Source: an uncultured bacterium (lineage in GTDB: Bacteria > Patescibacteriota > Minisyncoccia > Phycocordibacterales > Phycocordibacteraceae). Taken from it: 64,000 nt of DNA. Position 1 is the stretch's first letter. Every line of letters begins with the position of its first letter. Below the pieces are notes generated by a model. It had not been told where the DNA came from and searched no databases. It saw nothing but the letters and a program-made list of their open reading frames with translations. Both the position numbers and the translations under genes were made by a program. Shown one piece after another: positions 18,698 through 36,480 of the stretch. The stretch is taken from contig CAMTYL010000004.1 in the NCBI GenBank assembly GCA_947085985.1, positions 61,547 through 125,546 of the forward strand. Direction: 5' to 3'.

Positions 18698-18706
18698 AGA
18701 TCAATC

Positions 18707-19252: not shown

Positions 19253-19262
19253 ACGTAACCAA

Positions 19263-19652
19263 TTACCAAATCTTGAAGAGCTCTTCCCCACCAACATGGA
19301 GTCGGCGTGCCTCGCGATCAGAGAGGATTCCCTTTGGCGTAGACATGATGCGGGCACCCACACCGTTCTTAACGCTGTGTGTATCGTCTGCACCTGCGTA
19401 GAGGCGGCGTCCTGGCTTTGATACGCGCTTTACGTCAGTAATCTTACTGTCGCCAGCATCGTTCAGTGCAAGCTGTACTTCAAAACTGTACGGCACCTTG
19501 CTCTTTCCTACTTCAGAAAGGTAGCCAAGCTCCTTAAGCTTGTAGGCGATAGCCTCTACGTGCTTTGAATACGGCACCACAACAGTGTGCTTGCCGATTG
19601 CGCCAGCATTCTTGAGGCGAATAATGAAGTCTCCTACGCGGTCAGTTACCAT
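19263..19652 (-). CDS. rpsH: 30S ribosomal protein S8
   Basis: MVTDRVGDFIIRLKNA... Confidence 0.9.
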   Translation of the reverse strand: MVTDRVGDFIIRLKNAGAIGKHTVVVPYSKHVEAIAYKLKELGYLSEVGKSKVPYSFEVQLALNDAGDSKITDVKRVSKPGRRLYAGADDTHSVKNGVGARIMSTPKGILSDREARRLHVGGEELFKIW

Positions 19653-19663
19653 AGTACGAAAAA

Positions 19664-19933
19664 TTACCAAGAAGCTTTCTTAACGCCAGGAATCTTTCCC
19701 TCGCGAGCGAGCTCGCGGAACTGGATGCGAGAAAGACCGAATGCGCGCATGTAGCCACGAGGGCGACCAGTGACGACGCAGCGATTCTTCACACGAACAG
19801 GGGAAGAATTCTTTGGCAGCTTCTGTAGACCCTCCCAGTCACCCGCAAGCTTTAAAGCCGCACGCTTTGCAGCGTACTTGAGCGTTAGCTTCGCCTTCTT
19901 GGCGTTGCGAGCGATTTGAGAGGTTTTTGCCAT
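19664..19933 (-). CDS. rpsN: 30S ribosomal protein S14 (long, non-zinc type)
   Basis: [15 protein letters not shown] ... [26 protein letters not shown]. Confidence 0.85.
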
Positions 19934-20074
19934 AAAAAATAGCTCCGGAGAGCCGTTCATGTAATCTATCAGTAAGTATATAGGCTGTCAAATAAGGGAC
20001 GAGCTGATATGACAAATGCCCGGCGCCACAGATGAGAATCTGCAGCACCGGGCCCGTATGCCCAGGAAATGGCT

Positions 20075-20572
20075 CTACAGCAGGCTGAAAATCAGCTTGC
20101 GTTCCGGTTCCCAGACCCGTTGCGGATCGAGGCGCCGCGCATACAGCCACCGAATTCCGCGCTCCTCCGCCACCACCAGGTGATGGGGCTGATCGTTGCC
20201 GTCGAGGACCGGCTCGGTGTAGACCACGCCGGCAAGCTGCGTACCCTTCGGCGCCGCCCACAGGTCAAGAGCGAACGCCAGAGAGAGAGGCTTGGCGCCC
20301 ATCTTCGAAAGCTGGCCGAGGACGGCCGTTTCGCGGACGGGAACACCGTGCTTGAATCCGAGGTGCGCCAGCGTGACCTGGCCAACCAGGCCCTTGTGCT
20401 CGTAGACCGCGAGACAGCCCTTCGTCTCGCTGCTGGCCAAAGTCGCCAGCAACTTGCGGGCGTGCTCGTCCATCTGATGACTCGGGTCAGCGAACGCGAG
20501 GAAGTGGGACACGTGGTCCATGTTGCTTTCCAGCGAGTAACGAACGCGCGGAATATCGAGAATGTCCCCCAT
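20075..20572 (-). CDS. hypothetical protein inserted between rplE and rpsN; GC3-rich, foreign-looking
   Basis: 165 aa, SD AAGGAGG 6 nt before the ATG; ~65% GC against ~53% for flanking r-protein genes; no family recognised. Confidence 0.55.
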   Translation of the reverse strand: MGDILDIPRVRYSLESNMDHVSHFLAFADPSHQMDEHARKLLATLASSETKGCLAVYEHKGLVGQVTLAHLGFKHGVPVRETAVLGQLSKMGAKPLSLAFALDLWAAPKGTQLAGVVYTEPVLDGNDQPHHLVVAEERGIRWLYARRLDPQRVWEPERKLIFSLL

Positions 20573-20650
20573 AGGGCCTCCTTACTGAGCAGAGGTGCGG
20601 AATGCACCAATGAACTCCTCCTCTCTGGATACCACGAAATGCATAAAAGT

Positions 20651-20674
20651 AAAACCCCGGCACTGCCGGGGTTT
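20651..20674. terminator. bidirectional rho-independent terminator directly after rplE
   Basis: AAAA-CCCCGGC-act-GCCGGGG-TTTT. Confidence 0.65.
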
Positions 20675-20693
20675 TACTTGTAAGAAATGCTAC

Positions 20694-21230
20694 TTACGCA
20701 GTCTTAATCGGAAGCCCAAGCATACGAAGGAATGCCTCTGCCTCTTCCTTGGTCTTTGCGGTTGTCACAAAGGTGATAGCAAGACCAAATACGTCCTTCA
20801 AGTCCTCTTCTGAGGTCTCAGGGAAGATGGTGTGGTCCTTGATACCGATGGTGTAGTTGCCCATCTCATCAAACGACCCAGCAGAAAGTCCACGGAAGTC
20901 GCGCGTACGAGGAAGTGCAATGTGAATCAGCTTGTCCACGAAGTGGAACATGCGTGTTGAACGAAGCGTCACCTGGTAACCTACGATTTCACCCTGACGC
21001 ATCTTGAACTGTGCAATTGACTGCTTAGACGCACGCGGCGCAGCCTTCTGGCCCGTAATGCGAGCAAGACGCCCTTCAATAAGAGTCTTTCGGTTCTTGT
21101 CAGCCTTTCCTACTCCCGTAGAAACCACCACCTTTACAAGGCGTGGAGATGAGAACACGTTGGTGTATCCGAAACGCTCCTTAAGCGTATCAAATGCCTT
21201 GCTCTGCTTTTCTTTAGTAATCATTGTCAT
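20694..21230 (-). CDS. rplE: 50S ribosomal protein L5
   Basis: L5 family conservation. Confidence 0.9.
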   Translation of the reverse strand: MTMITKEKQSKAFDTLKERFGYTNVFSSPRLVKVVVSTGVGKADKNRKTLIEGRLARITGQKAAPRASKQSIAQFKMRQGEIVGYQVTLRSTRMFHFVDKLIHIALPRTRDFRGLSAGSFDEMGNYTIGIKDHTIFPETSEEDLKDVFGLAITFVTTAKTKEEAEAFLRMLGLPIKTA

Positions 21231-21241
21231 AAATACGGTGG

Positions 21242-21586
21242 TTACGCGAGTTTGGTGCCGCTCTTTACGGTGACACGGGTACGCTTTCCATCAATCTCTT
21301 CGCGCTTTACGCGAGTACCCTTCTTCTCCTTTGGGTCATAGACCATCACATTTGAGATAGCCATAGCGCGTGGGCGCTCTACGATGCGGCCAGACTGACC
21401 ACGGCCAGTACCACGAAGGTGGCGCTTTACGATAGCTGCGCCCTCTACTACTACCTTAGCCTCAAGCGGAATAACACGCTCAACAACGCCGGTCTTACCC
21501 TTGTCCTTTCCAGAGATAACGAGAACCGTATCTCCCTTCTTGATCTTAAACTTTGCGGTCTGCTGACCCATGCTTGCCTTTGACAT
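21242..21586 (-). CDS. rplX: 50S ribosomal protein L24
   Basis: KOW motif KGDTVLVISGKDKGK. Confidence 0.9.
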   Translation of the reverse strand: MSKASMGQQTAKFKIKKGDTVLVISGKDKGKTGVVERVIPLEAKVVVEGAAIVKRHLRGTGRGQSGRIVERPRAMAISNVMVYDPKEKKGTRVKREEIDGKRTRVTVKSGTKLA

Positions 21587-21597
21587 ATAGATAGAGG

Positions 21598-21975
21598 TTA
21601 TACAACTTCAGGCGCAATAGACGCAATGTTCTGCCATCCGCGCTCTACAAGGTCGCGCGGTACTGGACCAAACACACGGTTACCCTTGGGGCCCATTTCC
21701 TTACCCTGCTTCTCAATAAGCACGACTGCGTTGTCATCAAAACGCACGTAGATACCAGATGCGCGACGGAAGGCCTTCTTCTGGCGCACCACCACAGCCT
21801 TGTAGATGTCCTTCTTTTTTACTGCCTTGCGTGGCTCTGCGGTCTGGACTGATACCACAACCACGTCGCCAATCTCAGCGTAGCGGCGCTTTGAACCACC
21901 AAGCACCTTGAACACGCGCGCAATCTTTGCGCCTGAGTTGTCTGCAACGGTGACGATACTTTGTGGCTGTAGCAT
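21598..21975 (-). CDS. rplN: 50S ribosomal protein L14
   Basis: MLQPQSIVTVADNSGAK. Confidence 0.95.
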   Translation of the reverse strand: MLQPQSIVTVADNSGAKIARVFKVLGGSKRRYAEIGDVVVVSVQTAEPRKAVKKKDIYKAVVVRQKKAFRRASGIYVRFDDNAVVLIEKQGKEMGPKGNRVFGPVPRDLVERGWQNIASIAPEVV

Positions 21976-21986
21976 AAATAATAGAG

Positions 21987-22229
21987 TTACTTGGCGATTT
22001 TGAATGACTTACGCTTTGAGATAGGTGCGCAGGCCACGATGGTAACCTTGTCCCCTTCCTTTGCGGTGTTGCCCTCGTCGTGCACGAGGAACTTCTTGGT
22101 CTTCACCTGGAACTTCTTGTACTTCGGGTGCATGACGTAGCGAGATACCGCAACGGTAGCCGTGTCCTTCATTGCCGTCTTTACAACGACTCCCTCAAAA
22201 TGCTGTGGCTGTGTGGTGGTCTTTTCCAT
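21987..22229 (-). CDS. rpsQ: 30S ribosomal protein S17
   Basis: S17 OB-fold consensus. Confidence 0.9.
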   Translation of the reverse strand: MEKTTTQPQHFEGVVVKTAMKDTATVAVSRYVMHPKYKKFQVKTKKFLVHDEGNTAKEGDKVTIVACAPISKRKSFKIAK

Positions 22230-22234
22230 AATAA

Positions 22235-22435
22235 TTAGTTGGTCTTCTGTGCGGTCATCTGGGTCAAGATGCGTGCGATGTCCTTGCGAGTCTTCTTTGG
22301 GAGAGACGCATCTGCTGGGCGAGCGCCTGCCGCTGCAAAGCGAAGCTTGCGAAGCTCTTCACGCTTCTCTCCAAGGAGTAGAGCGAGCTCTTCGGCGGTC
22401 TTTTCGGTTAGGGTGAGTTTCTTAGACATACGCAA
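22235..22435 (-). CDS. rpmC: 50S ribosomal protein L29
   Basis: 66 aa helical L29. Confidence 0.85.
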   Translation of the reverse strand: MRMSKKLTLTEKTAEELALLLGEKREELRKLRFAAAGARPADASLPKKTRKDIARILTQMTAQKTN

Positions 22436-22439
22436 AGAG

Positions 22440-22859
22440 TTAGCGGGTTACAACGGTTGTCTTCATAGGAAGCTTTGCGCCAGCACGACGGATGGCATCA
22501 CGTGCCTTCACGTCCTCTACGCCATCCATCTCAAAGAGTACGCGTCCTGGGCGAACCTCAAAGACGAAGCCCTTCGGGTCTCCCTTACCCTTACCCATGC
22601 CCACCTCAGCTGGCTTTGCAGTCACCGGGCGGTCTGGGAATACGCGAATCCACATCTTGCCGGTCTTGCCACATGCACGAGAGAGCACCTTACGGGCAGC
22701 CTCAATCTGATTGCTGGTGATGCGTCCTGGTGTGGTCGCCTTCATTGCGTATGAACCAAATGACACAGTGATGCCACGAGTATCAGGGCGCGCGAGCTTC
22801 TCTGGACTCTTTCGTCCAGTCTGCCACTTGCGGTGTTTTACTTTCTTAGGGAACAACAT
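22440..22859 (-). CDS. rplP: 50S ribosomal protein L16
   Basis: L16 consensus. Confidence 0.9.
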   Translation of the reverse strand: MLFPKKVKHRKWQTGRKSPEKLARPDTRGITVSFGSYAMKATTPGRITSNQIEAARKVLSRACGKTGKMWIRVFPDRPVTAKPAEVGMGKGKGDPKGFVFEVRPGRVLFEMDGVEDVKARDAIRRAGAKLPMKTTVVTR

Positions 22860-22865
22860 ACGCGT

Positions 22866-23558
22866 TTATTTAGACTGAGCGTTACGAGGAGCGGTTGCAG
22901 ACTCTGCGAAGGTCTCGCCAAGGTAGATCCACACCTTAATACCAATCACACCGTACGGAAGGTATGCACGCTCCTGAGCGTAATCAATGTTTGCACGGAA
23001 GGTCTGAAGTGGAATACGTCCCTTCTTAATCTGCTCGGTGCGGCTCATGTCGGCTCCTCCGAGGCGGCCAGACACTACAATGCGCACACCCACTACCTCG
23101 CGAACAGACATTACCTTTTCAACCGTTGACTTCAGAACACGGCGGAAGGTCATGCGCTTCTCAAGACCCTCAGCGACCATGTACGCAACAATTGCGGCAC
23201 TGGTCTCTGGCTGACGAATTTCAATGATGTCCAGCTTTACTGCGCGACCATGAAGCGGTGATGCTTTGCGAACAACGGTGGTTAGTTCTGCGCGAAGTTT
23301 GGTAGCGTTCTCACCTGAGCGACCGATAACGAGACCTGGGCGAGCCGTGTGAAGAATCACACGGATTTCAGCAGCTGAGCGCTCAATCTCAATATCGGCA
23401 ACGTGCATTGAGCGAAGGCGCTTCTTCAAAAAGCCACGGATAGCAGCATCCACCGCAATGTTCTCGCGGTAACTCTTCTTATCTGCAGCAAACCAGCGAC
23501 TCTTCCAGTCGCGAATGATGCCGAGGCGGTGTGCGTAAGGATGTACGGTGTGTGTCAT
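22866..23558 (-). CDS. rpsC: 30S ribosomal protein S3
   Basis: KH domain plus S3 C-terminal domain. Confidence 0.9.
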   Translation of the reverse strand: MTHTVHPYAHRLGIIRDWKSRWFAADKKSYRENIAVDAAIRGFLKKRLRSMHVADIEIERSAAEIRVILHTARPGLVIGRSGENATKLRAELTTVVRKASPLHGRAVKLDIIEIRQPETSAAIVAYMVAEGLEKRMTFRRVLKSTVEKVMSVREVVGVRIVVSGRLGGADMSRTEQIKKGRIPLQTFRANIDYAQERAYLPYGVIGIKVWIYLGETFAESATAPRNAQSK

Positions 23559-23566
23559 GGTAAAAA

Positions 23567-23974
23567 TTATGCACTTGGCACAGATGGATTCTCTACAGAA
23601 AGAGTAACGATAACGTTACTACGGCGCTTGCGAATAGGAGCAGCACGTCCCATAGCGCGCGGCATGTACTTCTTAATCATGCCCGCACTGTTCACCTGAA
23701 TGTTAGCCACGCGAAGTGAGTCCTTGTCCTCTCCCTTAGCAACACCGTTAGCGACAGCACTCTCAATAAGCTTCTTGATAGGAAGCGCTGCGCGCTTTGG
23801 AAGGAACGAAAGCGCTGCTACTGCGTCAGCAACCTTCTTGCCCTTTACCATGTCGGTCACCAGGCGAACCTTGCGTGGAGACTGGTTATAGGTAGCAAGC
23901 TCGGCCTTGATTGCCTTCTTCTGCTCTGCCTTACGAATTGCAGCGGGTGCCTTGTGTGTGCCAGTAGATGCCAT
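23567..23974 (-). CDS. rplV: 50S ribosomal protein L22
   Basis: L22 consensus. Confidence 0.9.
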   Translation of the reverse strand: MASTGTHKAPAAIRKAEQKKAIKAELATYNQSPRKVRLVTDMVKGKKVADAVAALSFLPKRAALPIKKLIESAVANGVAKGEDKDSLRVANIQVNSAGMIKKYMPRAMGRAAPIRKRRSNVIVTLSVENPSVPSA

Positions 23975-23980
23975 AGTAGA

Positions 23981-24328
23981 TTATTTCTTCTTAGGAGCGG
24001 CAGGGGCTGCCTTTGCAGCCTTAGCTGCTGCAATCTCAGCAGCCTGCTTCTTCTGCTCAAGCTGCTTCTGCATCTTACCTCCGTGACGGACGAACTTCTT
24101 GGTTGAAGAGAATTCGCCAAGCTTGTGGCCCACCATGTCCTCGGTGACGAGTACGTCTATGTGGCTCTTGCCGTTGTGCACCCCGAAGGTGAATCCAACG
24201 AACTCAGGCGCAATCTGACTGTTGCGCGCCCATGTCTTAATAGAGGCCGTATCAGACGGCTTTTTGCCATCAACCTTCTTAAGAAGCTTGATGTCGACGT
24301 ATGGGCCTTTTTTAAGTGAGCGTGACAT
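23981..24328 (-). CDS. rpsS: 30S ribosomal protein S19 with K/A-rich C-terminal tail
   Basis: [12 protein letters not shown] ... GHKLGEF core. Confidence 0.9.
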
Positions 24329-24462
24329 AGATAGACAATGGAAAGCCCGCCAAGCGGGATAGGTAAAATCTATATTAAAGCTGGCCTGGTGTCAAACTTT
24401 GGGTGTTGTGGTAGGGTGCTGGCAGGTGTTCAAATGCTAGATGATCTACTGGAGGTCAAGTT

Positions 24463-24915
24463 ATGACGATGGTTCCCGTTGTTGAATTGCGCGTCTGGAC
24501 GCGCTATCCGGGCCAGTTCAGAGGCCAGGTGCCTGTTAGAGACCGTGCCAGCTATATGCTGACGGACCCCACCGGTCACCTTTCTGCTCTTATCAAAAGG
24601 AGCGAAGAGCTGACCAAGCAATGCGCTAAAAACAGCTTGCGGACGGACTTTCTCCCCTCCTTGAGGGCGAAGTGGCTGGCCTGGGCATCAAAGCGACTCA
24701 TCAAGAGGCTTGCTTCGCGCACCAAAAGGGCGCTCAGCCAGCTAGTGGTCACAAGCAATAAGTCTGCCAGGGTACTGGAGAGCCATGAAAAGCACCGTGT
24801 TGTGCAAAGCATGGACAGGGCCGTGAGATTGGACTTTGTTGCTTACCAGGCTAAGGAGCCTTTTGACGGAGAAACCCTTCTCTTGGTGGCATACGCAAGT
24901 ACCGTCCTAAAATAA
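24463..24915 (+). CDS. hypothetical protein, opposite strand, inside the rplB-rpsS junction
   Basis: 150 aa, SD GGAGGT 8 nt upstream of the ATG, terminator downstream. Confidence 0.55.
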   Translation: MTMVPVVELRVWTRYPGQFRGQVPVRDRASYMLTDPTGHLSALIKRSEELTKQCAKNSLRTDFLPSLRAKWLAWASKRLIKRLASRTKRALSQLVVTSNKSARVLESHEKHRVVQSMDRAVRLDFVAYQAKEPFDGETLLLVAYASTVLK

Positions 24916-24924
24916 GCCCACCCC

Positions 24925-24960
24925 GGACCCTGCACCATGCAGGGTCCGCGCTTATTAAGG
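24925..24960 (+). terminator. rho-independent terminator
   Basis: GGACCCTGCA-ccat-TGCAGGGTCC then GCGCTTATT. Confidence 0.6.
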
Positions 24961-24982
24961 ATGGGGGAGTATACTTTCTTAT

Positions 24983-25795
24983 ATGACCGACCGCATAAAG
25001 TACTTCCTTCCCGCAGCAATCTTACTCGTAATTCTCTTGGGCGGTGTCGTTTGGTACATGATGAGCACTCCCGCTCCTACACCAAATTTTGGTACTGACA
25101 CACCAGCTGCCGCCACAGAACCCGTCACCGTCACGGATGAAGCCACCTACTACACCGTAAGGGCGCTGTACCCGAGTGAAACACCCCTTAAAGCTTCTGC
25201 AGGGGCACAGGCCGACCAGACAGCTGTTTCAGTCATGAAGACCTTCGTAGAGCAAGAAATTGCCCGGTTCAAAGACAACGGGAACTTTGCGAACCTATCG
25301 CACGACGATGTGCAGATGTTGGGGCTCGATCAGCGCAAGTATGAGCTGGATCTTGAGTACACTACACATGCTGGTAACGCGACACTCACCTATGTGTACC
25401 AAATGTACATGGATACGGGTGGAGCCCATCCAAATGTGTTTTACCGAACCTTTACTTTTGATGTAAAGACGGGAGCCCAGCTCAGCATGCACGACCTCTT
25501 TGCGGAAGATGCGCCTTACCTTGAGACTCTCTCTACCCTCTCGCGCAGCAAACTGCCTGCGTTTATGGCTGCGCGTAGCGGCGTAGCGGTAAGCGAAGTA
25601 GATACCGACTACATCGCGAGCGGCACCATGGCTGTGGAGGACGCGTTCCAAAACTTCTACTTCAAGGACGGAAACTTGGTACTCCTCTTCCCTCCCTACC
25701 AAATCGGCCCGTATGTTCTGGGCATGATTGAACTTCCTATTCCAGTGTCAGAACTTTCAGATCTACGCGTTGAGTACAAAAATAGTGCCCGTTAA
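24983..25795 (+). CDS. membrane-anchored DUF3298/DUF4163-domain protein (RsiV/PdaC-like fold)
   Basis: N-terminal TM helix; hallmark YQMYMDTGGAHPNVFYRTFTFD block. Confidence 0.65.
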   Translation: MTDRIKYFLPAAILLVILLGGVVWYMMSTPAPTPNFGTDTPAAATEPVTVTDEATYYTVRALYPSETPLKASAGAQADQTAVSVMKTFVEQEIARFKDNGNFANLSHDDVQMLGLDQRKYELDLEYTTHAGNATLTYVYQMYMDTGGAHPNVFYRTFTFDVKTGAQLSMHDLFAEDAPYLETLSTLSRSKLPAFMAARSGVAVSEVDTDYIASGTMAVEDAFQNFYFKDGNLVLLFPPYQIGPYVLGMIELPIPVSELSDLRVEYKNSAR

Positions 25796-25870
25796 CAGCT
25801 TACTCTTTACGTGCACTACTGCGCTTTATTTGCTAGGGTTACGGCAGGTGAACAGAAGGGGGAAACCCAA

Positions 25871-26089
25871 ATGTGTGAAGCTTGCGGCCCCAGTAGCGGG
25901 GTACCCGAACGAATAAGCCCGGAGCTTATGGAGCGGTTCCGAGAAATCGGCCGTCAGGAAGCTGCCCGTCGCGGCATCACAGAGGAGGAGTATCTGGATG
26001 CCAACGTCACGGTGAGCCCGCCAAACCGCCTTATGGCGTGGCTGCGGGAAGCCTGGACCAACATCCAGCTCTTGAAGCCGTGGCTCTAA
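25871..26089 (+). CDS. small hypothetical protein
   Basis: 72 aa from ATG 25871, with SD GGGGGA upstream. Confidence 0.4.
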   Translation: MCEACGPSSGVPERISPELMERFREIGRQEAARRGITEEEYLDANVTVSPPNRLMAWLREAWTNIQLLKPWL

Positions 26090-26102
26090 GACCACGCAAG
26101 TG

Positions 26103-26174
26103 GGGCCCGTCGCGAGACGGGCCCTTCGTGTGCCTGGAGTATAAACAAAAAGCCGCTCGTTGGAGCGGCTTTTT
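26103..26174 (+). terminator. two consecutive hairpins; the second is a bidirectional A-tract/T-tract terminator
   Basis: GGGCCCGTC-gcgag-GACGGGCCC, then AAAAAGCCGCTC-gttg-GAGCGGCTTTTT. Confidence 0.6.
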
Positions 26175-26198
26175 GCTAGGGAGCAGAAAATTGCTGCA

Positions 26199-26283
26199 GA
26201 TGCTAGGCGCGAGGAGGAAATTTCTGGAGGCGTACTGGCAGTACGACGGAAGAAATTTCTGAACTCGCAACAACGCAGATGTA
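26199..26283 (+). repeat. conserved intergenic element, copy C (GATGCTAGGCGCGAGGAG ... CGTACTGGCAGTACGACGGAAG ... CTCGCAACAACGCAGATG)
   Basis: between the insertion terminator and the rplB stop. Confidence 0.7.
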
Positions 26284-26301
26284 GTAATTTTGTGCTCACT
26301 A

Positions 26302-27147
26302 CTACCCCTTCTTGCCGACTTTGCGACGAGAAACAATATGCTTGTTTGAGTACTTCTTCGGAGTACGAGTCTTCTGACCCTTGCCGGTTGGCTTACCCCA
26401 CATGCTCTTGGCACGGCGGAGTCCGCGTCCCTGCTTACCTTCTCCACCTCCGTGTGGGTGATCAACTGGGTTCATCGCAGTACCGCGAACAGTAGGACGG
26501 ATGCCGAGCCAGCGGCTGCGACCTGCCTTACCAAAGTTAGCTAGGCGCTGCTCCTCGTTGCCAACCGCACCGATAGATGCCCAGCAGAGCTCGTTGACCT
26601 TGCGTACTTCAGACGAAGGAAGCTTGATCTGCGCGTAGCCAGCGTCGTGAGCTACTACTTCAGCGTAGTTTCCGGCAGAGCGTACAAGACGTGCACCTGC
26701 TCCTGGCTGCAGCTCAATGTTGTAGATAAAGGTTCCGGAAGGAATCTTTCCAAGGGGAAGACGGTTTCCGGTCTTGATCGGTGCTGCCTCTCCTACAAGG
26801 AACGTGTCTCCAACCTTCATATCCTTTGGTGCAAGCACGTAGCGGCGCTCTCCATCAGCAAATACGGTGAGTGCGATGAATGCAGTTCGGTATGGATCGT
26901 ACTCAATTGTCTCAATACGTGCAGGAATGTTCTTCTTGTCGTACTTGAAATCAATATCACGAAGCAAGCGCTTGTGACCACCTCCCTGGTGACGCACGGT
27001 AATGCGTCCAGAGTTGTTGCGTCCACCCTGACGCTTCTTGTGTGAGGTAAGTGCCTTGTGTGGCTTCACACCCGGAGTGAGTACGCCACGGTACGTGACA
27101 ACACTCATCTGGCGGCGACTCTTGGATGTTGGTTTGTAAGTCTTCAT
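26302..27147 (-). CDS. rplB: 50S ribosomal protein L2
   Basis: L2 consensus. Confidence 0.95.
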   Translation of the reverse strand: MKTYKPTSKSRRQMSVVTYRGVLTPGVKPHKALTSHKKRQGGRNNSGRITVRHQGGGHKRLLRDIDFKYDKKNIPARIETIEYDPYRTAFIALTVFADGERRYVLAPKDMKVGDTFLVGEAAPIKTGNRLPLGKIPSGTFIYNIELQPGAGARLVRSAGNYAEVVAHDAGYAQIKLPSSEVRKVNELCWASIGAVGNEEQRLANFGKAGRSRWLGIRPTVRGTAMNPVDHPHGGGEGKQGRGLRRAKSMWGKPTGKGQKTRTPKKYSNKHIVSRRKVGKKG

Positions 27148-27158
27148 ACGTAAATGGG

Positions 27159-27524
27159 CTATGCGAAGCTGATGGTGTCTCCCTTCTTGAGAGTCACATA
27201 CGCCTTGTGGCGACGGCTACGTGTTCCTACTCCACGACGTGAGCGAAGTGAAACAGTCTTTGCAGGAAGGTTCACAAGACGAACCTGAGCAGGTACCACG
27301 CCATATGCCTTCTCAATTGCGTTTGCAATGTCGGTAGAGGTTGCAGCTGGAAGCACCTCAAAGGTGTATACGCCGTTCTCGGTACCAATAAGCGCCTTCT
27401 CGCTGAACCATGGGCGCTTTAGTACGTTTGCAAGACGTGCATCGTCAGCAGCAAGTACACCGCGAGCCTTTGCAGGCGCCGCCTTCTTGGTTGTCTTCTT
27501 TGAGTTAGAGGAAAAGAGTGCCAT
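27159..27524 (-). CDS. rplW: 50S ribosomal protein L23
   Basis: L23 consensus with N-terminal extension. Confidence 0.85.
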   Translation of the reverse strand: MALFSSNSKKTTKKAAPAKARGVLAADDARLANVLKRPWFSEKALIGTENGVYTFEVLPAATSTDIANAIEKAYGVVPAQVRLVNLPAKTVSLRSRRGVGTRSRRHKAYVTLKKGDTISFA

Positions 27525-27535
27525 ACGTAATTCTG

Positions 27536-28297: not shown

Positions 28298-28299
28298 AA

Positions 28300-28914
28300 T
28301 TATGCAGAAATGATCTCCACGAGTGCACCCGGAGCGCCTGGAATAGCGCCAGAGATAATCATCTCTCCGGTAGCAGCGTTTACCTTCAAGACCTTTAGGT
28401 TCTTGATGGTTACACGGTCGTTACCCATGCGTCCTGCCATGCGCATACCCTTAGCGACGCGTCCTCCGGCGCGACCTCCTCCTCCGATGGAACCAGCCTC
28501 GCGCTCAGAGTGCTTCTGACCGTGTGAGCGGCGTCCTCCATGGAAGCCGTGGCGCTTAACCACACCAGCAAATCCGTGACCCTTAGAGGTAGAAGAGATA
28601 ACAACGGTGTCACCCTCAGCAAATACGTCAGCCTTGATTTCGCTTCCAACGGTTAGGTCGCCTGCCTCAGTCTTGAATTCCTTTAGGAAACGGTATGCCT
28701 TGCCCTTGGTGTGACCAAGCTGTGGCTTTGCTACACGGCTTTCCTTCTGCTCTCCAAAAGCAACCTGCACAGCAGCGTATCCATCCTTACCAGCAGCCTC
28801 CTTCACCTGTGTGACCACAACAGGACCTGCCTGTACGACAGTTCCAGCGTATACACGACCAGACTCATCAAAAATCTGAGTCATGCGGCCTTTACGAGCG
28901 AGGATGAATTTCAT
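28300..28914 (-). CDS. rplC: 50S ribosomal protein L3
   Basis: MKFILARKGRMTQIFDESG; start taken at ATG 28914. Confidence 0.9.
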   Translation of the reverse strand: MKFILARKGRMTQIFDESGRVYAGTVVQAGPVVVTQVKEAAGKDGYAAVQVAFGEQKESRVAKPQLGHTKGKAYRFLKEFKTEAGDLTVGSEIKADVFAEGDTVVISSTSKGHGFAGVVKRHGFHGGRRSHGQKHSEREAGSIGGGGRAGGRVAKGMRMAGRMGNDRVTIKNLKVLKVNAATGEMIISGAIPGAPGALVEIISA

Positions 28915-29106
28915 GAGGTAAAAATAAATCGCGCTAACACGTAGCGCGAGGTCGCTCAAAAGCGACTTCGGCTAGTGGTCTACCGCCCAAATGACGGTGT
29001 ACATAGCAACTCAAGGACTATACAGGGTCTGTCTCTGGAATGCAACTTTCCATGCTATATTCGCAGGTGTCAGGGTTGCCTGACGGAAAGGAACGGTAAG
29101 CCCATG

Positions 29107-29199
29107 TGGGAAATCACTTTCGGAGATGGGGGTTCCGACGGCCTGAAGCAGGGCGACGGTGGAACCACCATCATCGGAGACGGCGGCACCAAGATCTAG
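29107..29199 (+). CDS. candidate 30-aa small peptide MWEITFGDGGSDGLKQGDGGTTIIGDGGTKI
   Basis: three GDGG repeats; possible extended -10 TGcTATATT about 35 nt upstream; terminator just downstream; alternative 74-aa reading from GTG 28975 adds a CxxxCxxxxCxxC motif. Confidence 0.3.
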   Translation, partial: WEITFGDGGSDGLKQGDGGTTIIGDGGTKI

Positions 29200-29218
29200 C
29201 CGTCCCCGCCCAGAATGG

Positions 29219-29250
29219 GACCCGGCGCGGATGCGCCGGGTCTTTCTCAT
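29219..29250 (+). terminator. rho-independent terminator
   Basis: GACCCGGCGC-ggat-GCGCCGGGTC then TTTCTCAT. Confidence 0.55.
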
Positions 29251-29259
29251 ATACAGTTT

Positions 29260-29286
29260 GGGCCGCGAGCGTGTTGCTCGCGGCCC
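29260..29286. terminator. 11-bp perfect hairpin GGGCCGCGAGC-gtgtt-GCTCGCGGCCC just after the 77-aa gene
   Basis: seen directly; no clear T-tract on either strand. Confidence 0.4.
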
Positions 29287-29288
29287 TG

Positions 29289-29522
29289 TTAATGAGGTAT
29301 GCAGTGCGGGGACACGTACCGGTGGGTTTTCTTGCTCTTCCAGCGAAGAGAATTGTCACACCAGTACACTTCTCGAGCCCTCATCGGAGTAGGCTCATAA
29401 TCCCGATGATGTTCTGGGTTCGGGTGCAGAGCCTTCCCTATCCGATGGTTTCGATCATACTCTCGCTGTCGCTCCGCCGTCGGCTTTCCGCCGCCAGGCA
29501 CATTGCGGTTATTACCGTACAT
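29289..29522 (-). CDS. hypothetical 77-aa basic, His-rich protein
   Basis: SD GAAGGAGAG 5 nt upstream of the ATG; convergent with the small peptide gene. Confidence 0.45.
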   Translation of the reverse strand: MYGNNRNVPGGGKPTAERQREYDRNHRIGKALHPNPEHHRDYEPTPMRAREVYWCDNSLRWKSKKTHRYVSPHCIPH

Positions 29523-29585
29523 CTACTCTCCTTCTCTACCGATGAACAGAGGGGAGCATACCGCGCTTTGTGCGAAAGGAAAAGC

Positions 29586-29613
29586 AAAAACCGCCCCTTG
29601 CGGGGCGGTTTTT
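29586..29613. terminator. bidirectional terminator immediately after rpsJ
   Basis: AAAAA-CCGCCCC-ttgc-GGGGCGG-TTTTT. Confidence 0.65.
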
Positions 29614-29635
29614 GCTTTTGTTATCCGAGCGAATC

Positions 29636-29998
29636 TTACACCATCTTCACGTCGATAGTAACACCAGACGGAAGGTTGAGGTTGGTAAGGGCTTCAATAA
29701 CCTTCGCGTTTGGCGAGAGGATATCGATAAGACGCTTGTGGATACGCATCTCGAACTGCTCGCGCGCGTCCTTGTGAACGAACGTTGAGCGGTTCACGGT
29801 CCAACGCTTGATTTCCGTTGGAAGCGGTACGGGTCCTACAATCTTCGCATCAAAGCGATTTGCGGTGTCCATAATCTGCTTCACCGAAACATCAAGAATC
29901 TTGTGCTCGTAGGCACGCACCCGGATGCGTAGCTTCGGCTCTGCAGGAGCCTCCGCTGTAGCGGCCTTCTTGACGGTCTTTTTCGCGGTTGTTGCCAT
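29636..29998 (-). CDS. rpsJ: 30S ribosomal protein S10
   Basis: KLRIRVRAYEHKILD core; start taken at ATG 29998 (ORF reaches TTG 30028). Confidence 0.9.
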   Translation of the reverse strand: MATTAKKTVKKAATAEAPAEPKLRIRVRAYEHKILDVSVKQIMDTANRFDAKIVGPVPLPTEIKRWTVNRSTFVHKDAREQFEMRIHKRLIDILSPNAKVIEALTNLNLPSGVTIDVKMV

Positions 29999-30020
29999 AC
30001 GAGTAAGAATTAGATTGGAT

Positions 30021-31223
30021 TTAGGCAACGATCTTCGTTACCACACCTGCTCCAACCGTCTTGCCACCCTCACGGATAGCGAAGTGCTGAGACTCCTCAA
30101 GCGCGATAGGCGCAGTGAGCTTTACCTTGAAGGTAACGGTGTCTCCCGGCATAACCATCTCCTTTCCTTCTGGAAGGGTCACCTCACCTGTTACGTCCGT
30201 TGTGCGAACGTAGAACTGAGGCTTGTAACCAGAGAAGAATGGAGTGTGACGTCCTCCCTCGTCCTTACCAAGGATGTATACCTCGGCTTCAAAGTCAGTA
30301 CGAGGAGCAACGGATCCCGGCTTCGCGATAACCTGACCGCGATGCACGTCCTCCTTCTTAGTACCGCGGAGCAAGATTCCTGCGTTGTCTCCAGCCATAC
30401 CTTCGGTGAGCTGCTTGTTGAACATCTCAATACCGGTAATGGTGGTCTTTGCAGTTGGGTGGAGGCCGATGATTTCAACTTCCTCTCCCACCTTGATAAC
30501 ACCGCGCTCGATACGACCAGTGATAACTGTTCCGCGTCCTTCAATTGAGAACACGTCCTCAACAGGCATTAGGAATGGCTTGTCGGTCTCGCGAACTGGG
30601 TCTGGGAAGTATGAGTCCATCGTGTCGACGAGCTCCTTCACCTTAAGTGCCCACTCATCGTTAGCATCAGTTGCCTCAAGTCCCTTAAGACCTGATCCCT
30701 TGATGATAGGAGTAGTAGCACCATCGTAGCCGTTCTTGGTGAGAAGCTCACGCATCTCCTCTTCAACGAGCTCTACCATGTCAGCGTCCTCTACCATGTC
30801 TACCTTGTTGAGGAAGATGATAAGACGAGGCACACCAACGTTCTTTGCAAGAAGAATGTGCTCGCGGGTCTGAGGCATAGCACCGTCAGTTGCGGCAACT
30901 ACGAGTACTGCACCATCCATCTGGGCAGCTCCCGTAATCATGTTCTTGATGTAGTCGGCGTGGCCTGGCGCGTCAATGTGCGCGTAGTGGCGATTTGGTG
31001 ACTCGTACTCTGAGTGGTGAAGGGCGATGGTGATTCCACGAGCCTTTTCCTCAGGTGCGTTGTCGATGTTTTCAATCTTCTCAGCGCGGGCCTTGTAGCC
31101 TGCAGCTGCGTTCAGGTTGAGAACGTTAAGAATACCGGCAGTGAGCGTAGTCTTACCATGGTCCACGTGACCGATGGTTCCTACGTTCATGTGCGGCTTG
31201 CTGCGGTCGAATGCGTCTGCCAT
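30021..31223 (-). CDS. tuf: elongation factor Tu
   Basis: [24 protein letters not shown]. Confidence 0.97.
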
Positions 31224-31497
31224 ACGTTTGTAAATTACTGGTAGCTAAATTTGTGTAATTTCGCTGCCGCGCCTGCCTGCCAGCCGGGGATGGCAGCAGG
31301 CGACCAAGGCGCAGACACGAACTTTCCGCGCAACGCCTTTCAGCCACCCCCTGCCTCCCTGTGGAGACCTGGAATACTAAAAAGAGCGCCGTTCTCGCGT
31401 TACTAGTAAAAGTACCCGAGCGAATACTAAAGGTCAAGGCCCTTTTAGAGCCTTGCAACTACGAAGGGGCGGCCAGATGGCCGCCCCTACTCTACTT

Positions 31498-31740
31498 CTA
31501 GCGCGCCAAGGCGAACCGTCGGTGCGATGTGTACCGCTTTGGAGCAACCTCAGCCCGATACGGCTTATTGCCGAGCTCCGGTCCCAGGTACGCAGGAACG
31601 GGAGTCGGCTTTTCCGGTCTGCTACGCCGGGCGCCGTGCCGTAGCGGGTAGCGACCCGGGAACGCCAAGCGCACAAGCGCAAACGGCACAAAAAAGAACA
31701 TGTACAACCGGAATATCCGGTCACTGATAGCTGCAATCAT
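31498..31740 (-). CDS. hypothetical 80-aa membrane-anchored basic protein (could instead be a non-coding GC-rich leader)
   Basis: SD GGGAGGAAG upstream; palindrome GGGGCGGCCAGATGGCCGCCCC downstream. Confidence 0.35.
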   Translation of the reverse strand: MIAAISDRIFRLYMFFFVPFALVRLAFPGRYPLRHGARRSRPEKPTPVPAYLGPELGNKPYRAEVAPKRYTSHRRFALAR

Positions 31741-31769
31741 AGCTTCCTCCCTGCCCAGGCGAGCATACT

Positions 31770-31809
31770 ACCACAAAAATTCATCCCCCGGCCACGCTGT
31801 GGCCGGGGG
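31770..31809 (-). terminator. rho-independent terminator after the 95-aa gene
   Basis: CCCCCGGCCAC-gct-GTGGCCGGGGG followed, on the minus strand, by TGAATTTTTGTGG. Confidence 0.6.
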
Positions 31810-31821
31810 ATACTTGGTGGT

Positions 31822-32109
31822 CTAACGGCAGCCCCACCCGCCGCAGGGGCGTCTGACGCCCCGATTGGGCACCTCGCGAGCTGGAATGGAGCGCCCAAGA
31901 GCGCGAGGCGGCTGCGGAAAGGTCTCCCAGATGGTCTTCTCGCGAATGAGTTCTGCCCGGATGAGCTGCTCCAGCGCGAAGAGTGCCGAATCTGCGCGCG
32001 GAAAGACCATCAGTACGGACCCTTCAGTCGCCACAATCGTGCGACTGAAAATCGGCGATTGGTCGGTATCATCCACGACGATAATGCCAGACGAATTAAC
32101 TGGGCTCAT
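31822..32109 (-). CDS. hypothetical 95-aa protein between fusA and tuf
   Basis: SD GAGGGAGGTG upstream of the ATG; C-terminal CGGWGC. Confidence 0.5.
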   Translation of the reverse strand: MSPVNSSGIIVVDDTDQSPIFSRTIVATEGSVLMVFPRADSALFALEQLIRAELIREKTIWETFPQPPRALGRSIPAREVPNRGVRRPCGGWGCR

Positions 32110-32200
32110 GCCCACCTCCCTCTTAGTTACATTTCCCAGAGAGACCATATCACAAAAGCCGCCAAATGGCGGCTTTTGTGCTACTTCGCTGCAAAACAGT

Positions 32201-34348
<2,148 letters not shown>

Positions 34349-34422
34349 AGATGGGAATAAATAAAATAAAAGCCGCCAGGGCGTTATCTACAAGATACGT
34401 AATCTAAGGACAAAAAGCAAAC

Positions 34423-34451
34423 GGGCGCGAACCAAGTTTTGGTTCGCGCCC
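34423..34451 (-). terminator. terminator after the NlpC/P60 gene
   Basis: 13-bp perfect stem GGGCGCGAACCAA / TTGGTTCGCGCCC followed, on the minus strand, by a T-rich run. Confidence 0.6.
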
Positions 34452-34458
34452 AGGTGAG

Positions 34459-35346
34459 CTAGTTCACGTCGCGTGCAACAATCGGGAGCCCGCGCTCGTC
34501 AACGACGTTCTCGTATCGCTCAGTAATCACGCGTCCAGCGTTGCCGCTCGCATGCACTACGTAGTCACGACCCAGACTGATGGCCACGTGCCCCTCCCAG
34601 AACAATAACTGGTCCCTGGTCCAGGAACCGAGTTCTCCGGGCTTAGGCACTTCCGCTTCCTTGCCGAGCGACATTTGCATGTCGGCGTCGCGCGGCACCT
34701 TCCGGCCCAAGGCATGGAACCCTAGCTGGACGAGCGCCGAGCAGTCTAGGCCGAGCGCCGTACTCCTCGCAGCCCAGACATACGGCACACCGAGCATTTT
34801 GTACGCCGCCGTTGCTGGACCAACATAGTCCAACTCCTTCTCTTCAAAGAAGCCCCGATGCAGAGGGAGCAAGGTATCTTCTTTCACCCACCCCACACCA
34901 GGAATCTCCGAGAAGCCATTCTGTAGCCTCGCGACATGCACCTCGGTCCACAGACCAAGGCGCTCGAAGGTCGGAAGGGTATGACTCGGACCCGCGTATA
35001 CGAGCGCGGAGAGGGCCGTCACCCGGTGTGTAAGCACGGGCGCTGGTCGCTCCGACAGGTTGAAGTCCTCCGTGCGCGCAAACCCCACGTAGGAGTCGTG
35101 TTCGCACTGGACCATGACCCAGCTCGAACGGTGCGGATACAACACCGCCTTCTCGTTTAGGTTGAGCATACTGACCCGGGACGAACGTGGGTCGGGTTCC
35201 TCGTGAAGAAAGATTTGTGGCTTCTTAACACGAGCCGCACTGCCTTCTACATAGAACCGGGCATTGATACCAGCAGATCCGCGCAGATGCACGGCCGCCA
35301 GACCATCCCGAAACGGCAGGACACGCTTATCTACAACGTTCTGCAT
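34459..35346 (-). CDS. NlpC/P60 (C40) cell-wall endopeptidase with N-terminal SH3-like domains, inserted between rpsG and fusA
   Basis: catalytic Cys in GLDCSALVQ and His in WEGHVAI; GC3-rich (~63% GC). Confidence 0.75.
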   Translation of the reverse strand: MQNVVDKRVLPFRDGLAAVHLRGSAGINARFYVEGSAARVKKPQIFLHEEPDPRSSRVSMLNLNEKAVLYPHRSSWVMVQCEHDSYVGFARTEDFNLSERPAPVLTHRVTALSALVYAGPSHTLPTFERLGLWTEVHVARLQNGFSEIPGVGWVKEDTLLPLHRGFFEEKELDYVGPATAAYKMLGVPYVWAARSTALGLDCSALVQLGFHALGRKVPRDADMQMSLGKEAEVPKPGELGSWTRDQLLFWEGHVAISLGRDYVVHASGNAGRVITERYENVVDERGLPIVARDVN

Positions 35347-35425
35347 TTCTGTCTCCATCCAATCTGTCCAGGCACGGGTGCCGGAACTCCGGTTGAAGCT
35401 TCAATCCAAGACCCTTAAAAGTCAA

Positions 35426-35453
35426 CAAAAAGCGCCCTCTCGGGCGCTTTTTT
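35426..35453. terminator. bidirectional terminator downstream of rpsG
   Basis: AAAAAGCGCCC-tctc-GGGCGCTTTTT. Confidence 0.65.
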
Positions 35454-35586
35454 ATTCTTACGGGGCGAGGAAAAATGCCTGTATACCAGGCGCAAGAAGT
35501 AGAGTTCTCGAAGTGTGCGCGACTGTACAGTGAGAGAAGTCTACGCATTTGCAACGCAGTAGACAGGTATTTTAACCGACCCGTCT

Positions 35587-36051
35587 CTACCAAGCGAAGT
35601 GAGCGAAGGCCTTGTTCGCATCCGCCATGCGGTGCATGTCGTCGCGCTTCTTGATAGCTGAACCTTCGTTCTTGGCAGCTAGGAGGATTTCCTCTGCAAG
35701 CTTGTCAGCCATAGGCTTTCCCTTCTTAGCGCGCGCCGCGTTGATGAGCCAACGGTATGCAAGAGATGTACGGCGCTGCTGTGGTACCTCGCGAGGAACC
35801 TGGTAGTTAGCACCTCCCACACGACGTGAGCGCACTTCCATAAGTGGAGCAACGTTTCTAATTGCCGTCTCAAACGTCTCAAGTGGGTCCAACTCAGCGG
35901 CCTTGATTTTATCAAGCGCGTCGTAGACCACCTTAGTTGCGGTGTCCTTCTTTCCGTCCCACATAACCGTGTTGATGAAGCGTGAAATAGCTTCTGAACC
36001 GTACACGAGGTCAGGACGACGAGGATACTTGTTTTTTACGGGATGACGCAT
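35587..36051 (-). CDS. rpsG: 30S ribosomal protein S7
   Basis: S7 consensus. Confidence 0.95.
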
Positions 36052-36069
36052 GGTAGTAGAAAAATAAAA

Positions 36070-36480
36070 CTAAGCCTTAGGCTTCTTAGCACCGTACTTA
36101 GAACGGCCACGGCGACGCTTATCAATACCTGCGGTATCAAGACGACCACGCACGATGGTGTACTGCACGCCAATGTCCTTCACGCGACCACCACGAAGGG
36201 TGACCACTGAGTGCTCCTGGAGGTTGTGACCCTCACCTGGGATGTAGGCAGTAACCTCCATACCGTTGGTAAGGCGCACACGAGCAATCTTACGAATAGC
36301 CGAGTTTGGCTTGCGAGGAGTCTTGGTCGTTACCTTCACACATACACCGCGCTTGAAAGGAGACGCGTAAAAGGTTGGACGGTTCTTAAGAGTGTTAAAA
36401 CCACGTCCAAGTGCCACCACCTTCGTCTTACGAGCGGTGGTCTTGCGCGCCTTCTTTGTGAGCTGCTGAATTGTTGCCAT
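36070..36480 (-). CDS. rpsL: 30S ribosomal protein S12
   Basis: [13 protein letters not shown] ... S12 core; start taken at ATG 36480. Confidence 0.95.

Follow-up and report, generated by a model that had tools for sequence, protein, structure and literature searches.

Probable ancient division of the str-S10-spc ribosomal gene cluster of a candidate phyla radiation bacterium into modules whose boundaries may act as insertion hotspots

The 64,000-nt stretch of contig CAMTYL010000004.1 analysed here (termed the window, at its full length) carries the str-S10-spc cluster of ribosomal protein and elongation factor genes, which is among the most conserved gene arrangements of bacteria. The cluster is opened at five junctions, and the data are best explained by an ancient re-partition into at least seven units, the boundaries of which are insertion hotspots; we put the probability of this reading at roughly three in four. 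The modules would be rpsL-rpsG, fusA, tuf-rpsJ, rplC-rplD-rplW-rplB, rpsS to rplE, rpsN to secY, and adk-map. Each boundary would consist of an intrinsic terminator of the upstream module and a sigma-70-type promoter of the downstream module, the latter often followed by a 5' hairpin and a U-rich leader devoid of a Shine-Dalgarno (SD) sequence. DNA placed between terminator and promoter should have no polar effect on ribosomal gene expression, so that the boundaries would act as permissive slots, i.e., as selectively neutral landing sites at which short, mostly co-oriented cargo genes may be gained, lost and replaced far faster than the flanking core diverges.

Genes were typed by Pfam matches or from their translations, and gaps were measured between neighbouring genes. 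The cluster extends from rpsL to map at 14.5–36.5 kb on the minus strand and keeps the canonical order of its 27 genes (rpsL rpsG fusA tuf rpsJ rplC rplD rplW rplB rpsS rplV rpsC rplP rpmC rpsQ rplN rplX rplE rpsN rpsH rplF rplR rpsE rplO secY adk map). Unit 1 comprises rpsL (36070–36480; Pfam S12, 1e-32) and rpsG (35587–36051; S7, 2.5e-56), separated by an 18-nt gap which is tight in 24/24 relatives; unit 2 is fusA (32201–34348, with the EF-G domains), and unit 3 consists of tuf (30021–31223) and rpsJ (29636–29998) with 22 nt between them. Unit 4 (26302–28914) reaches from rplC (28300–28914, with the start corrected to 28914) to rplB (26302–27147), its internal junctions being tight in at least 99% of the relatives. 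Units 5 (20694–24328) and 6 (16008–19933) begin with rpsS (23981–24328) and rpsN (19664–19933), and end with rplE (20694–21230) and secY, respectively. The gaps at rpsG|fusA (1238 nt), fusA|tuf (977 nt), rpsJ|rplC (about 720 nt), rplB|rpsS (1973 nt) and rplE|rpsN (760 nt), with predicted terminators inside, disrupt the contiguity of the canonical str, S10 and spc operons, as the first-pass annotation of this stretch had stated. All remaining junctions measure no more than 22 nt, with the exception of secY|adk (176 nt). The boundaries known from Escherichia coli are closed, since only 22 nt separate tuf from rpsJ and 11 nt separate rpsQ from rplN, and a promoter and terminator scan of the window gave no match at these two sites. 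The gene rpmD, coding for L30, is absent, as annotated before, with just 11 nt between rpsE and rplO; L30 is missing from all bacteria of the candidate phyla radiation (CPR), the ribosomes of which often also lack L1 or L9 (bioRxiv 10.1101/2022.01.07.475337). The window has a GC content of about 53%, and its L2 protein is 64–86% identical to those of 80 species representatives labelled Parcubacteria, Paceibacteria, Kaiserbacteria, Nomurabacteria, Zambryskibacteria, Taylorbacteria or Minisyncoccia; sequence similarity assigns the organism to the CPR/Patescibacteria.

The same breaks recur among these relatives. The 27 genes were placed by tblastn in 80 Parcubacteria/Paceibacteria loci, and all 26 junctions were measured (loci and contigs of relatives are labelled L001 and upwards, with L001–L080 representing the nearest species and the higher numbers including sister contigs). 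A spacing of >300 bp was observed at fusA|tuf in 83% of the loci (>100 bp in 100%), at rplB|rpsS in 83% (>100 bp in 95%), at rplE|rpsN in 67%, at rpsG|fusA in 52%, and at rpsJ|rplC in 25% (>100 bp in 43%). A sixth, weaker break is found at secY|adk (>300 bp in 36%). At the remaining 20 junctions such a spacing is seen in 0–1% of the relatives, and the closed boundaries tuf|rpsJ and rpsQ|rplN exceed 300 nt in 2% and in 0/55, respectively. Because the same junctions are widened across 80 genomes, and because predicted promoters before rpsS and rpsN occur class-wide (see below), the breakpoints are probably ancient. Likewise, since widened junctions, promoter-like sites and terminators coincide, the cluster of the whole class appears to be modular. 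The suggestion that the split state is unusual and arose in this genome from recent insertions is thus not borne out.

The gaps of the relatives contain 373 open reading frames (ORFs) of at least 60 aa, of which 297 have no counterpart in the other gaps. Among the 150 largest, 82 Pfam families are represented, including pyrD/E/F, purine enzymes, IS200-like Y1 transposases, pilins, HicAB/MazF-like toxin-antitoxin pairs, Mur ligases and L10 (rplJ). The cargo is oriented like the ribosomal genes in 68% of cases (114 vs 54, p = 4e-6). In five relatives (L041, L051, L061, L067, L076), rplB|rpsS is filled by an IS200-like Y1 transposase gene (PF01797, about 220–245 aa), convergent to rplB, the rpsS promoter being situated in a short divergent spacer. 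In a Nomurabacteria/Zambryskibacteria-like subgroup (L024, L026, L029, L030, L037–L039, L053, L065, L066, L072, L074, L075), tblastn finds no tuf at fusA|rpsJ and a gap of about 900 nt takes its place; tuf appears to have left the ribosomal cluster in these genomes.

A GC-rich hairpin with a U-tract is located directly 3' of rplE, rplB, rpsJ, fusA and rpsG, with calculated folding energies (dG) of −19 to −34 kcal/mol; several of these hairpins carry A-tract flanks and could work in both directions. The predicted terminators on the minus strand are found after rpsG at 35427–35452 (AAAAAGCGCCC-GAGA-GGGCGCUUUUU, dG −18.8, bidirectional), after fusA at 32151–32180 (CACAAAAGCCGCC-AUUU-GGCGGCUUUUGUG, dG −27.5), after rpsJ at 29586–29613 (dG −34), and after rplE at 20651–20674 (dG −27.1, with a homologous terminator in L081). 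The rplB terminator at 26145–26176 is bidirectional (dG −23.4 on the minus strand) and shared with the convergent cargo gene o92, where it also forms part of a plus-strand fold. Cargo genes described below have predicted terminators or hairpins of their own on the minus strand, namely the NlpC/P60 peptidase gene at 34422–34452 (dG −27.4, followed by UUUGCUUUUUG), o95 at 31782–31812, and o165 at 20018–20053. In the relatives, terminators follow the upstream gene in 4–14 loci per junction, compared with about 0.1 expected.

Sigma-70-like promoter motifs precede four of the downstream modules. Those of rpsS (24395–24367, region 24329–24395) and rpsN (19991–19963, region 19934–19991) share the hexamers TTGACA-N17-TAGATT, with an additional TG at rpsN. 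The tuf promoter consists of TTGACC (31437–31432), a 17-nt spacer and TACTTT (31414–31409), and that of rplC of TTGCAT (29045–29040), a 17-nt spacer and TATAGT (29022–29017). The putative fusA promoter (34385–34413, TTGTCC-N17-TAGATA) is the weakest of the five and was not picked up by the consensus promoter scan of the window; the last ~60 nt before fusA, from window position ~34422, are 84% conserved with L002. The 58 nt before rpsN are 83–88% conserved in L001, L002, L003 and L020, and this conservation starts 1 nt ahead of the −35 box. Over the expanded junctions, promoter-like sites were counted before rpsS in 44/52, before rpsN in 27/32 and before tuf in 20/34 relatives, with expectations of 8.7, 4.6 and 7.7, respectively, from shuffled sequences. 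The terminators which the first-pass annotation had placed after rplE, rpsJ, rpsG and the NlpC gene were thus recovered, and its proposal of separate transcription units agrees with the terminator and promoter motifs, which suggest at least seven modules. Its postulate of re-evolved promoters before rpsN, rpsS, rplC, tuf and fusA stands as to the motifs at four sites, the fusA motif being tentative; as those of rpsS and rpsN are class-wide, they are not recent.

In contrast to the cargo genes with their strong SD sequences, the first genes of the ribosomal units starting with rpsS, rpsN and rplC lack an SD sequence. In these leaders, a short hairpin and a U-rich tract follow a few nt past the −10 box and 10–16 nt before the ATG: at 24346–24358 for rpsS, at 19941–19954 for rpsN (U7), and at 28929–28949 for rplC (region 28915–29045), all on the minus strand. 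A hairpin with a U-tract precedes rpsS in 41/62 genomes (1.4 expected), and the letters of the stem vary with pairing kept. These leaders might serve as an attenuator, a 5' stabiliser or an S1-dependent initiation site. By alignment and RNAalifold, tuf has a conserved, structured leader of about 185 nt (31224–31408, minus strand), which is common to L001–L004 and L020. A GCCUGC/GCAGGC hairpin accompanies a long-range stem (CGCG..GGCGCUCUUUU / AAAGGCGUUGCGCG) in its predicted structure, 10/44 pairs of which show compensatory change. An Rfam search of this leader gave no match, and it is a candidate for a new cis-regulatory leader of the tuf-rpsJ unit. Searches of the gaps for tRNAs and Rfam families returned nothing above threshold, the weak matches being terminator hairpins only.

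The sharpest view of the boundaries comes from close relatives. Four sisters (L087, L088, L089, L093) encode an S10 protein identical to that of the window and are 92–97% identical in core DNA, and the contents of rpsJ|rplC and fusA|tuf differ between the window and these four. Similarity with L087, L089 and L093 stops at 29579–29587, i.e., at the rpsJ terminator, and sister similarity resumes at the −35 boxes of the rplC (29045–29047) and tuf (31439–31440) promoters; upstream of that −35 box the four sequences are unrelated, and from the −35 box onward they are identical. In genus-level relatives, similarity resumes 0–30 nt before the predicted −35 box at all five junctions. Short of transcripts, these limits may be regarded as the strongest evidence that the predicted terminators and promoters do stop and start transcription, and that the interior of the junctions is free to vary.

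Turnover was also evident from a comparison with L105, in which EF-Tu is 99.75% and fusA 94.7% identical to that of the window. L105 retains the XRE, M50, DUF3298 and o77m genes at 59–79% identity, its NlpC gene is just 27% identical, and unrelated ORFs replace o165, o95/o80 and o150. In all, 4–5 of about nine cargo genes are swapped, whereas the only four off-junction neighbours serving as a yardstick (Lactamase_B, L28, M50, XRE) are conserved at 75–79% identity. One and the same site, enclosed by conserved flanks, thus holds different, unrelated genes in closely related genomes, as in integration hotspots, and the earlier designation of the inserts as accessory is supported by contents that differ or are replaced between sisters. 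In L089, a 256-aa gene after fusA lies between 139-bp direct copies of the fusA 3' end (L089:592–730 and 1576–1714) which are 99% identical and probably constitute a recombination or insertion scar. A gene for ComEC (Competence and DUF4131 domains; 39724–41223, minus strand) is located 3 kb upstream of the ribosomal cluster. This gene and the duplication in L089, though no proof, suggest that DNA is taken up and that cargo may then be exchanged through homologous recombination between conserved flanking sequences. We infer that the cargo is expressed from weak promoters of its own, from read-through, or both.

Several points weigh against the interpretation of the boundaries as neutral slots. 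The terminators and promoters are predictions made from sequence, and the fusA promoter is weak. The hotspot status is gauged from four off-junction neighbours compared with one sister, and a single duplication scar, together with the ComEC gene, is what points to recombination as the mechanism. The o165, o77m, o95/o80 and DUF3298 families are faithful to one junction across relatives, which could mean position-linked function instead of neutral tolerance. Finally, "class-wide" refers to the 80 nearest GTDB species, and the true extent of the modular organization may be narrower or broader.

The coding status of small ORFs was judged by codon-position substitution counts against sister genomes; a 3-periodic Markov coding score trained on the window was dropped because it was overfitted and failed to part real from doubtful small ORFs. 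Most of the small cargo genes proved to be real. At rpsG|fusA, the cargo is a 295-aa peptidase with NlpC/P60 and SH3_16 domains (34459–35346, minus strand; GC content at third codon positions (GC3) 0.69). It matches PF00877 with an E-value of 2.7e-10 (40.6 bits vs a cutoff of 23) and SH3_16 with 1.8e-4, shows the catalytic Cys/His motifs DCSALV, GHVAIS and VVHAS, and has homologues annotated as gamma-D-glutamyl-L-lysine endopeptidase. The protein is 36–37% identical to homologues on high-GC non-CPR contigs (L104, 64.7% GC; named matches Xanthobacteraceae, Roseibium and Kaistia). The NlpC proteins encoded at this junction in the window, L105 (3190–4032) and L002 (838–1689) are mutually only 27–38% identical, with 27–33% for the window protein against the other two, and none of the three is closer to the others than to high-GC proteobacteria-like homologues. 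Because the window copy is closer to high-GC non-CPR homologues than to CPR copies at the same junction, xenologous replacement is indicated, and the pattern points to successive rounds in which one NlpC/P60 gene took the place of another.

The fusA|tuf junction contains two small genes on the minus strand, in agreement with the earlier prediction. The gene o95 (31822–32109) has a strong SD sequence (GGGAGGTG) and a GC3 of 0.68, and the C-terminal motif PPRxLGRSIPAR..GGWR of its product is also encoded by ORFs just after fusA in L087 (137 aa), L088 (120 aa) and L089 (123 aa). The gene o80 (31498–31740) encodes a small basic protein (isoelectric point (pI) 11.5) with a hydrophobic N-terminal segment; its 80-aa orthologue in L089 differs by 24 synonymous and 20 nonsynonymous codon changes, with mismatches by codon position of 13/10/28. 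At rpsJ|rplC, where a convergent pair of small genes had been proposed, only o77m (29289–29522, minus strand; SD sequence AAGGAG, pI 9.9) is supported. The comparison with L088 gave 16 synonymous against 3 nonsynonymous codon changes (mismatches by position 3/2/16). Its family comprises 10 proteins among 5.8e9 searched, which in all known contexts (L001, L087, L089, L105–L108) are encoded at rpsJ|rplC. The remainder of this junction (29048–29288, minus strand), including the ORF o79m (29011–29250), is variable and probably non-coding: sister comparison revealed neither a homologue nor a codon-position signal for 29048–29250, and 29048–29288 is swapped for unrelated DNA in L087, L088 and L089.

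The cargo block at rplB|rpsS (24463–26089) is encoded on the plus strand and ends at the terminator shared with rplB. Of the three genes annotated there, the DUF3298/PdaC-like gene (24983–25795; DUF3298 5e-14), coding for a membrane-anchored protein, is well supported, as is the NlpC/P60 assignment of the peptidase above; the DUF3298 gene keeps this junction and orientation in 10 relatives as well as in L105, L106 and L087. In comparison, o150 (24463–24915) has a weak match only, to its positional equivalent in L001 (26%, E 0.001), and o92 (probably 25871–26089) is 69% identical over 32 aa to a 74-aa ORF of L105. At rplE|rpsN, the orphan gene o165 (20075–20572, minus strand) has the SD sequence AAGGAGG, a GC content of 63% and a GC3 of 0.80. 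Full-length homologues share 80%, 54% and 53% identity, and all members with known context (L081–L086, L109) are encoded between rplE and rpsN. A profile search found four representatives in 1.84e9, with one extra member at the same junction and one spurious repeat protein, and a search with the o165-family hidden Markov model against all gap ORFs of the relatives revealed no remote homologue. An AlphaFold2 model from a four-sequence alignment was too poor for fold comparison (predicted local distance difference test score 49).

Altogether, the orphan families (o165, o77m, o80, o95) are tiny, with about 4–10 proteins, each seen only at its own junction. Pfam and PADLOC searches of the orphan cargo of the window gave no match, and the XRE gene matched just a generic helix-turn-helix domain. 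Pfam searches detected no integrase or transposase domains in the cargo of the window, nor a Y1 transposase in the window as a whole. The features of a genomic island are missing: the sole tRNA gene lies at 63060–63133, and there is no integrase domain and no flanking repeat.

The first-pass annotation had correctly noted an elevated GC3 of the inserts. In a codon-composition check, the eight cargo genes had a mean GC3 of 0.667. The 27 core genes lie lower at 0.551 (Mann-Whitney p = 1e-4), as do 37 other genes of the window at 0.539 (p = 1e-5). The extremes among 64 genes (mean 0.55, standard deviation 0.068) are o165 (0.80) and the XRE-family gene (0.81) at 36643–37140 (plus strand, divergent from rpsL; GC3 ~0.81–0.82), both more than 3.5 standard deviations above the mean. 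The XRE gene, however, keeps its position in L105 at 75% identity with a GC3 of 0.84, and its codon composition appears stable, without a sign of recent transfer; the o165 family likewise holds a GC3 of 0.72–0.80 at 53% identity and at an unchanged junction. Since it is kept in diverged orthologues, a high GC3 is no evidence of recency. The proposal of a high-GC donor has support for NlpC, the nearest homologues of which are on high-GC non-CPR contigs; searches for the donor taxonomy of o165, o77m, o80 and o95 found no such donor, the members with known context all belonging to this clade.

The raised GC3 might instead reflect GC-biased gene conversion at recombination hotspots, or simply the fact that the genes are young or orphans, and not a foreign high-GC origin; we consider this a serious though minority possibility. 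Nearly all cargo genes share the rise whatever their family, it persists in orthologues diverged to 53–75% identity, and the mosaicism of the junctions is recombination-like. A link between recombination and GC3 in bacteria is established and was reportedly described by Lassalle et al. in 2015. Biased gene conversion at recombination-prone sites is a plausible alternative to a high-GC donor. Yet the argument is one of composition and mosaicism, DUF3298 and o77m have an ordinary GC3 of 0.57–0.58, and the nearest homologues of NlpC truly derive from high-GC organisms.

Less probable, and in our view improbable overall, is a combined scenario in which the slots are not neutral but form a selected expression platform. 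The junction-locked orphans (o165 at rplE|rpsN, the o77m family at rpsJ|rplC, o95/o80 after fusA) would ride on read-through from the strongest promoters of the cell. Their products would be either lineage-specific proteins associated with the ribosome or quickly diversifying factors by which these episymbiotic bacteria interact with their hosts. In the same scenario, the SD-less hairpin and U-tract leaders, together with the tuf leader, would represent an undescribed layer coordinating the seven modules.

A related idea holds that the junction genes are lineage-specific translation-linked factors, such as small basic ribosome-associated proteins or regulators, kept beside the ribosomal genes for co-expression. 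The fidelity of the orphan families to their junctions, the very basic nature of o77m, o80 and their relatives (pI 9.9–11.7), the purifying selection acting on o77m and the co-orientation of most cargo would fit such a role, as would the reduced protein complement of CPR ribosomes. On the other hand, these genes are missing or swapped in sisters whose S10 is identical or whose EF-Tu is nearly so, the families have very few members and change at a pace well above that of every ribosomal protein, the cargo of the class is a functional mixture, and every cargo gene is insulated by predicted terminators. Because the orphans are replaced between near-identical genomes, a link to translation is unlikely.

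Equally doubtful is a recent break of a contiguous superoperon in this genome by islands from a high-GC donor, which would have forced new promoters to arise. The GC3 values of the cargo, with o165 and XRE as outliers, and the NlpC gene of the window, nearest to high-GC non-CPR homologues and only 27% identical to the sister copy, speak for such an origin. As to the breakpoints, however, it is already largely refuted, as the same five junctions are widened in most of the 80 related species, and the rpsS and rpsN promoters are kept class-wide. Moreover, relatives carry o165, o77m and DUF3298 at just these junctions with 53–75% identity, the XRE gene has a GC3 of 0.82/0.84 at 75% identity in the sister, and the orphan genes yielded no donor. 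Identical insertions conserved across the lineage, named at the outset as an argument against accessory status, were found by half: the sister synteny comparison shows that the junctions are conserved and shared and that their contents are replaced, with o165, o77m and DUF3298 staying at their own junctions in relatives. Although the source is a metagenome-assembled genome, a chimeric contig joining cluster fragments with unrelated DNA can practically be dismissed, since all five junctions recur on contigs from separate assemblies of several sequencing runs (L083–L086, L090–L092, L095, L097–L103), and many independent genomes of this kind show the same architecture.

Besides the cargo genes, the cluster harbours a repeat element of about 85 nt. 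As annotated before, copies B (15902–15983, in the secY|adk spacer right after the secY stop) and C (26198–26278, right after the rplB stop) are present on the minus strand; copy A (57855–57937, minus strand) is antisense in an unrelated spacer. Further copies are a possible degenerate one at 13063–13114 and one after rpsJ in L020 (7199–7275). Copies A, B and C were confirmed by motif searches, a repeat search at ≥25 nt having missed them. The ends of the element (CTGCGTTGTTGCG ... CGCGCCTAGCATCT) are conserved and enclose a central GTACNNNNNGTAC hairpin; the whole folds into one long, imperfect hairpin, 8/21 pairs of which show compensatory change among four copies. Copy C is missing at the rplB site of the sister L087. 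The element has no Rfam match, and a link to an IS200/RAYT-type transposase was rejected because no such gene exists in the window; it may be either a REP/MITE-like element (repetitive extragenic palindrome or miniature inverted-repeat transposable element) or a small RNA.

Some ribosomal proteins of the window carry lineage-specific Ala/Lys/Thr-rich extensions, at the C-terminus of S19 (23981–24328) and at the N-termini of L4 (27536–28288), L23 (27159–27524), S10 (29636–29998) and S5 (17736–18338). Downstream of map, the place of infA-rpmJ-rpsM-rpsK-rpsD-rpoA-rplQ is taken by an orphan 189-aa ORF and NDK (13219–14483, minus strand), which leaves the alpha operon unlinked from the ribosomal cluster.

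Phylogenies of CPR bacteria use the 16 syntenic ribosomal proteins of this cluster as their standard marker block. If the class has moved the operon boundaries, kb-scale gaps and foreign-looking genes in the marker block would be normal and not a sign of contamination, and if the boundaries are slots with fast turnover, expectations for the annotation and binning of CPR genomes would change. The junctions would represent a natural experiment on insertions tolerated within an essential, highly expressed locus, with limits sharp to the nucleotide, and a defined place to study gene acquisition by uncultivated symbionts with reduced genomes. They also provide candidate promoters, terminators and leaders for organisms without any mapped regulatory element. 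Literature searches turned up no account of breaks in the ribosomal cluster of CPR bacteria.

Compared with the str-S10-spc clusters of E. coli and Bacillus subtilis, the genes from rpsL to map have the same order and the same orientation, and spacing within the modules is tight. The predicted boundaries of the transcription units, however, are located at rpsG|fusA, fusA|tuf, rpsJ|rplC, rplB|rpsS and rplE|rpsN, tuf|rpsJ and rpsQ|rplN are closed, rpmD is missing, and neither the alpha operon nor rpoBC adjoins the cluster. The archaeal str operon, described from Methanococcus and Sulfolobus in the late 1980s, has the order S12-S7-EF-2-EF-1alpha-S10 and is followed by a separate L3-L4-L23-L2 operon. 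The tuf-rpsJ|rplC boundary of the window is similar in grouping S10 with an elongation factor and in starting the next unit with L3; no archaeal counterpart is known for the other four, and this is a resemblance only.

Sporadic rearrangements of concatenated translation operons in single lineages of Gammaproteobacteria and Bacilli were termed "invasion-separation"; insertions were most common (77/115 rearrangements), and 65% of the rearrangements left operons intact by lying between E. coli-defined operons (Brandis 2021, PMC8046335). The insertions described here are likewise small, comprising few unrelated genes between modules of a cluster which stays together. They differ in being located inside the str, S10 and spc operons and not between E. 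coli-defined operons, in occupying sites fixed across the class, and in contents that turn over even between near-identical genomes. Oliveira et al. (2017) reportedly described integration hotspots flanked by core genes, and Saunders and Snyder (2006) are said to have introduced the "minimal mobile elements" of Neisseria. The junctions of the window resemble both in presenting alternative cassettes at one site between conserved genes, the cassettes of the window being free of integrase genes, and may resemble the latter further, as exchange would plausibly proceed by homologous recombination in the flanks in a naturally competent organism. Unlike those systems, however, the flanks are ribosomal protein and elongation factor genes, and the slots appear to be limited, to the nucleotide, by a terminator on one side and a −35 box on the other.

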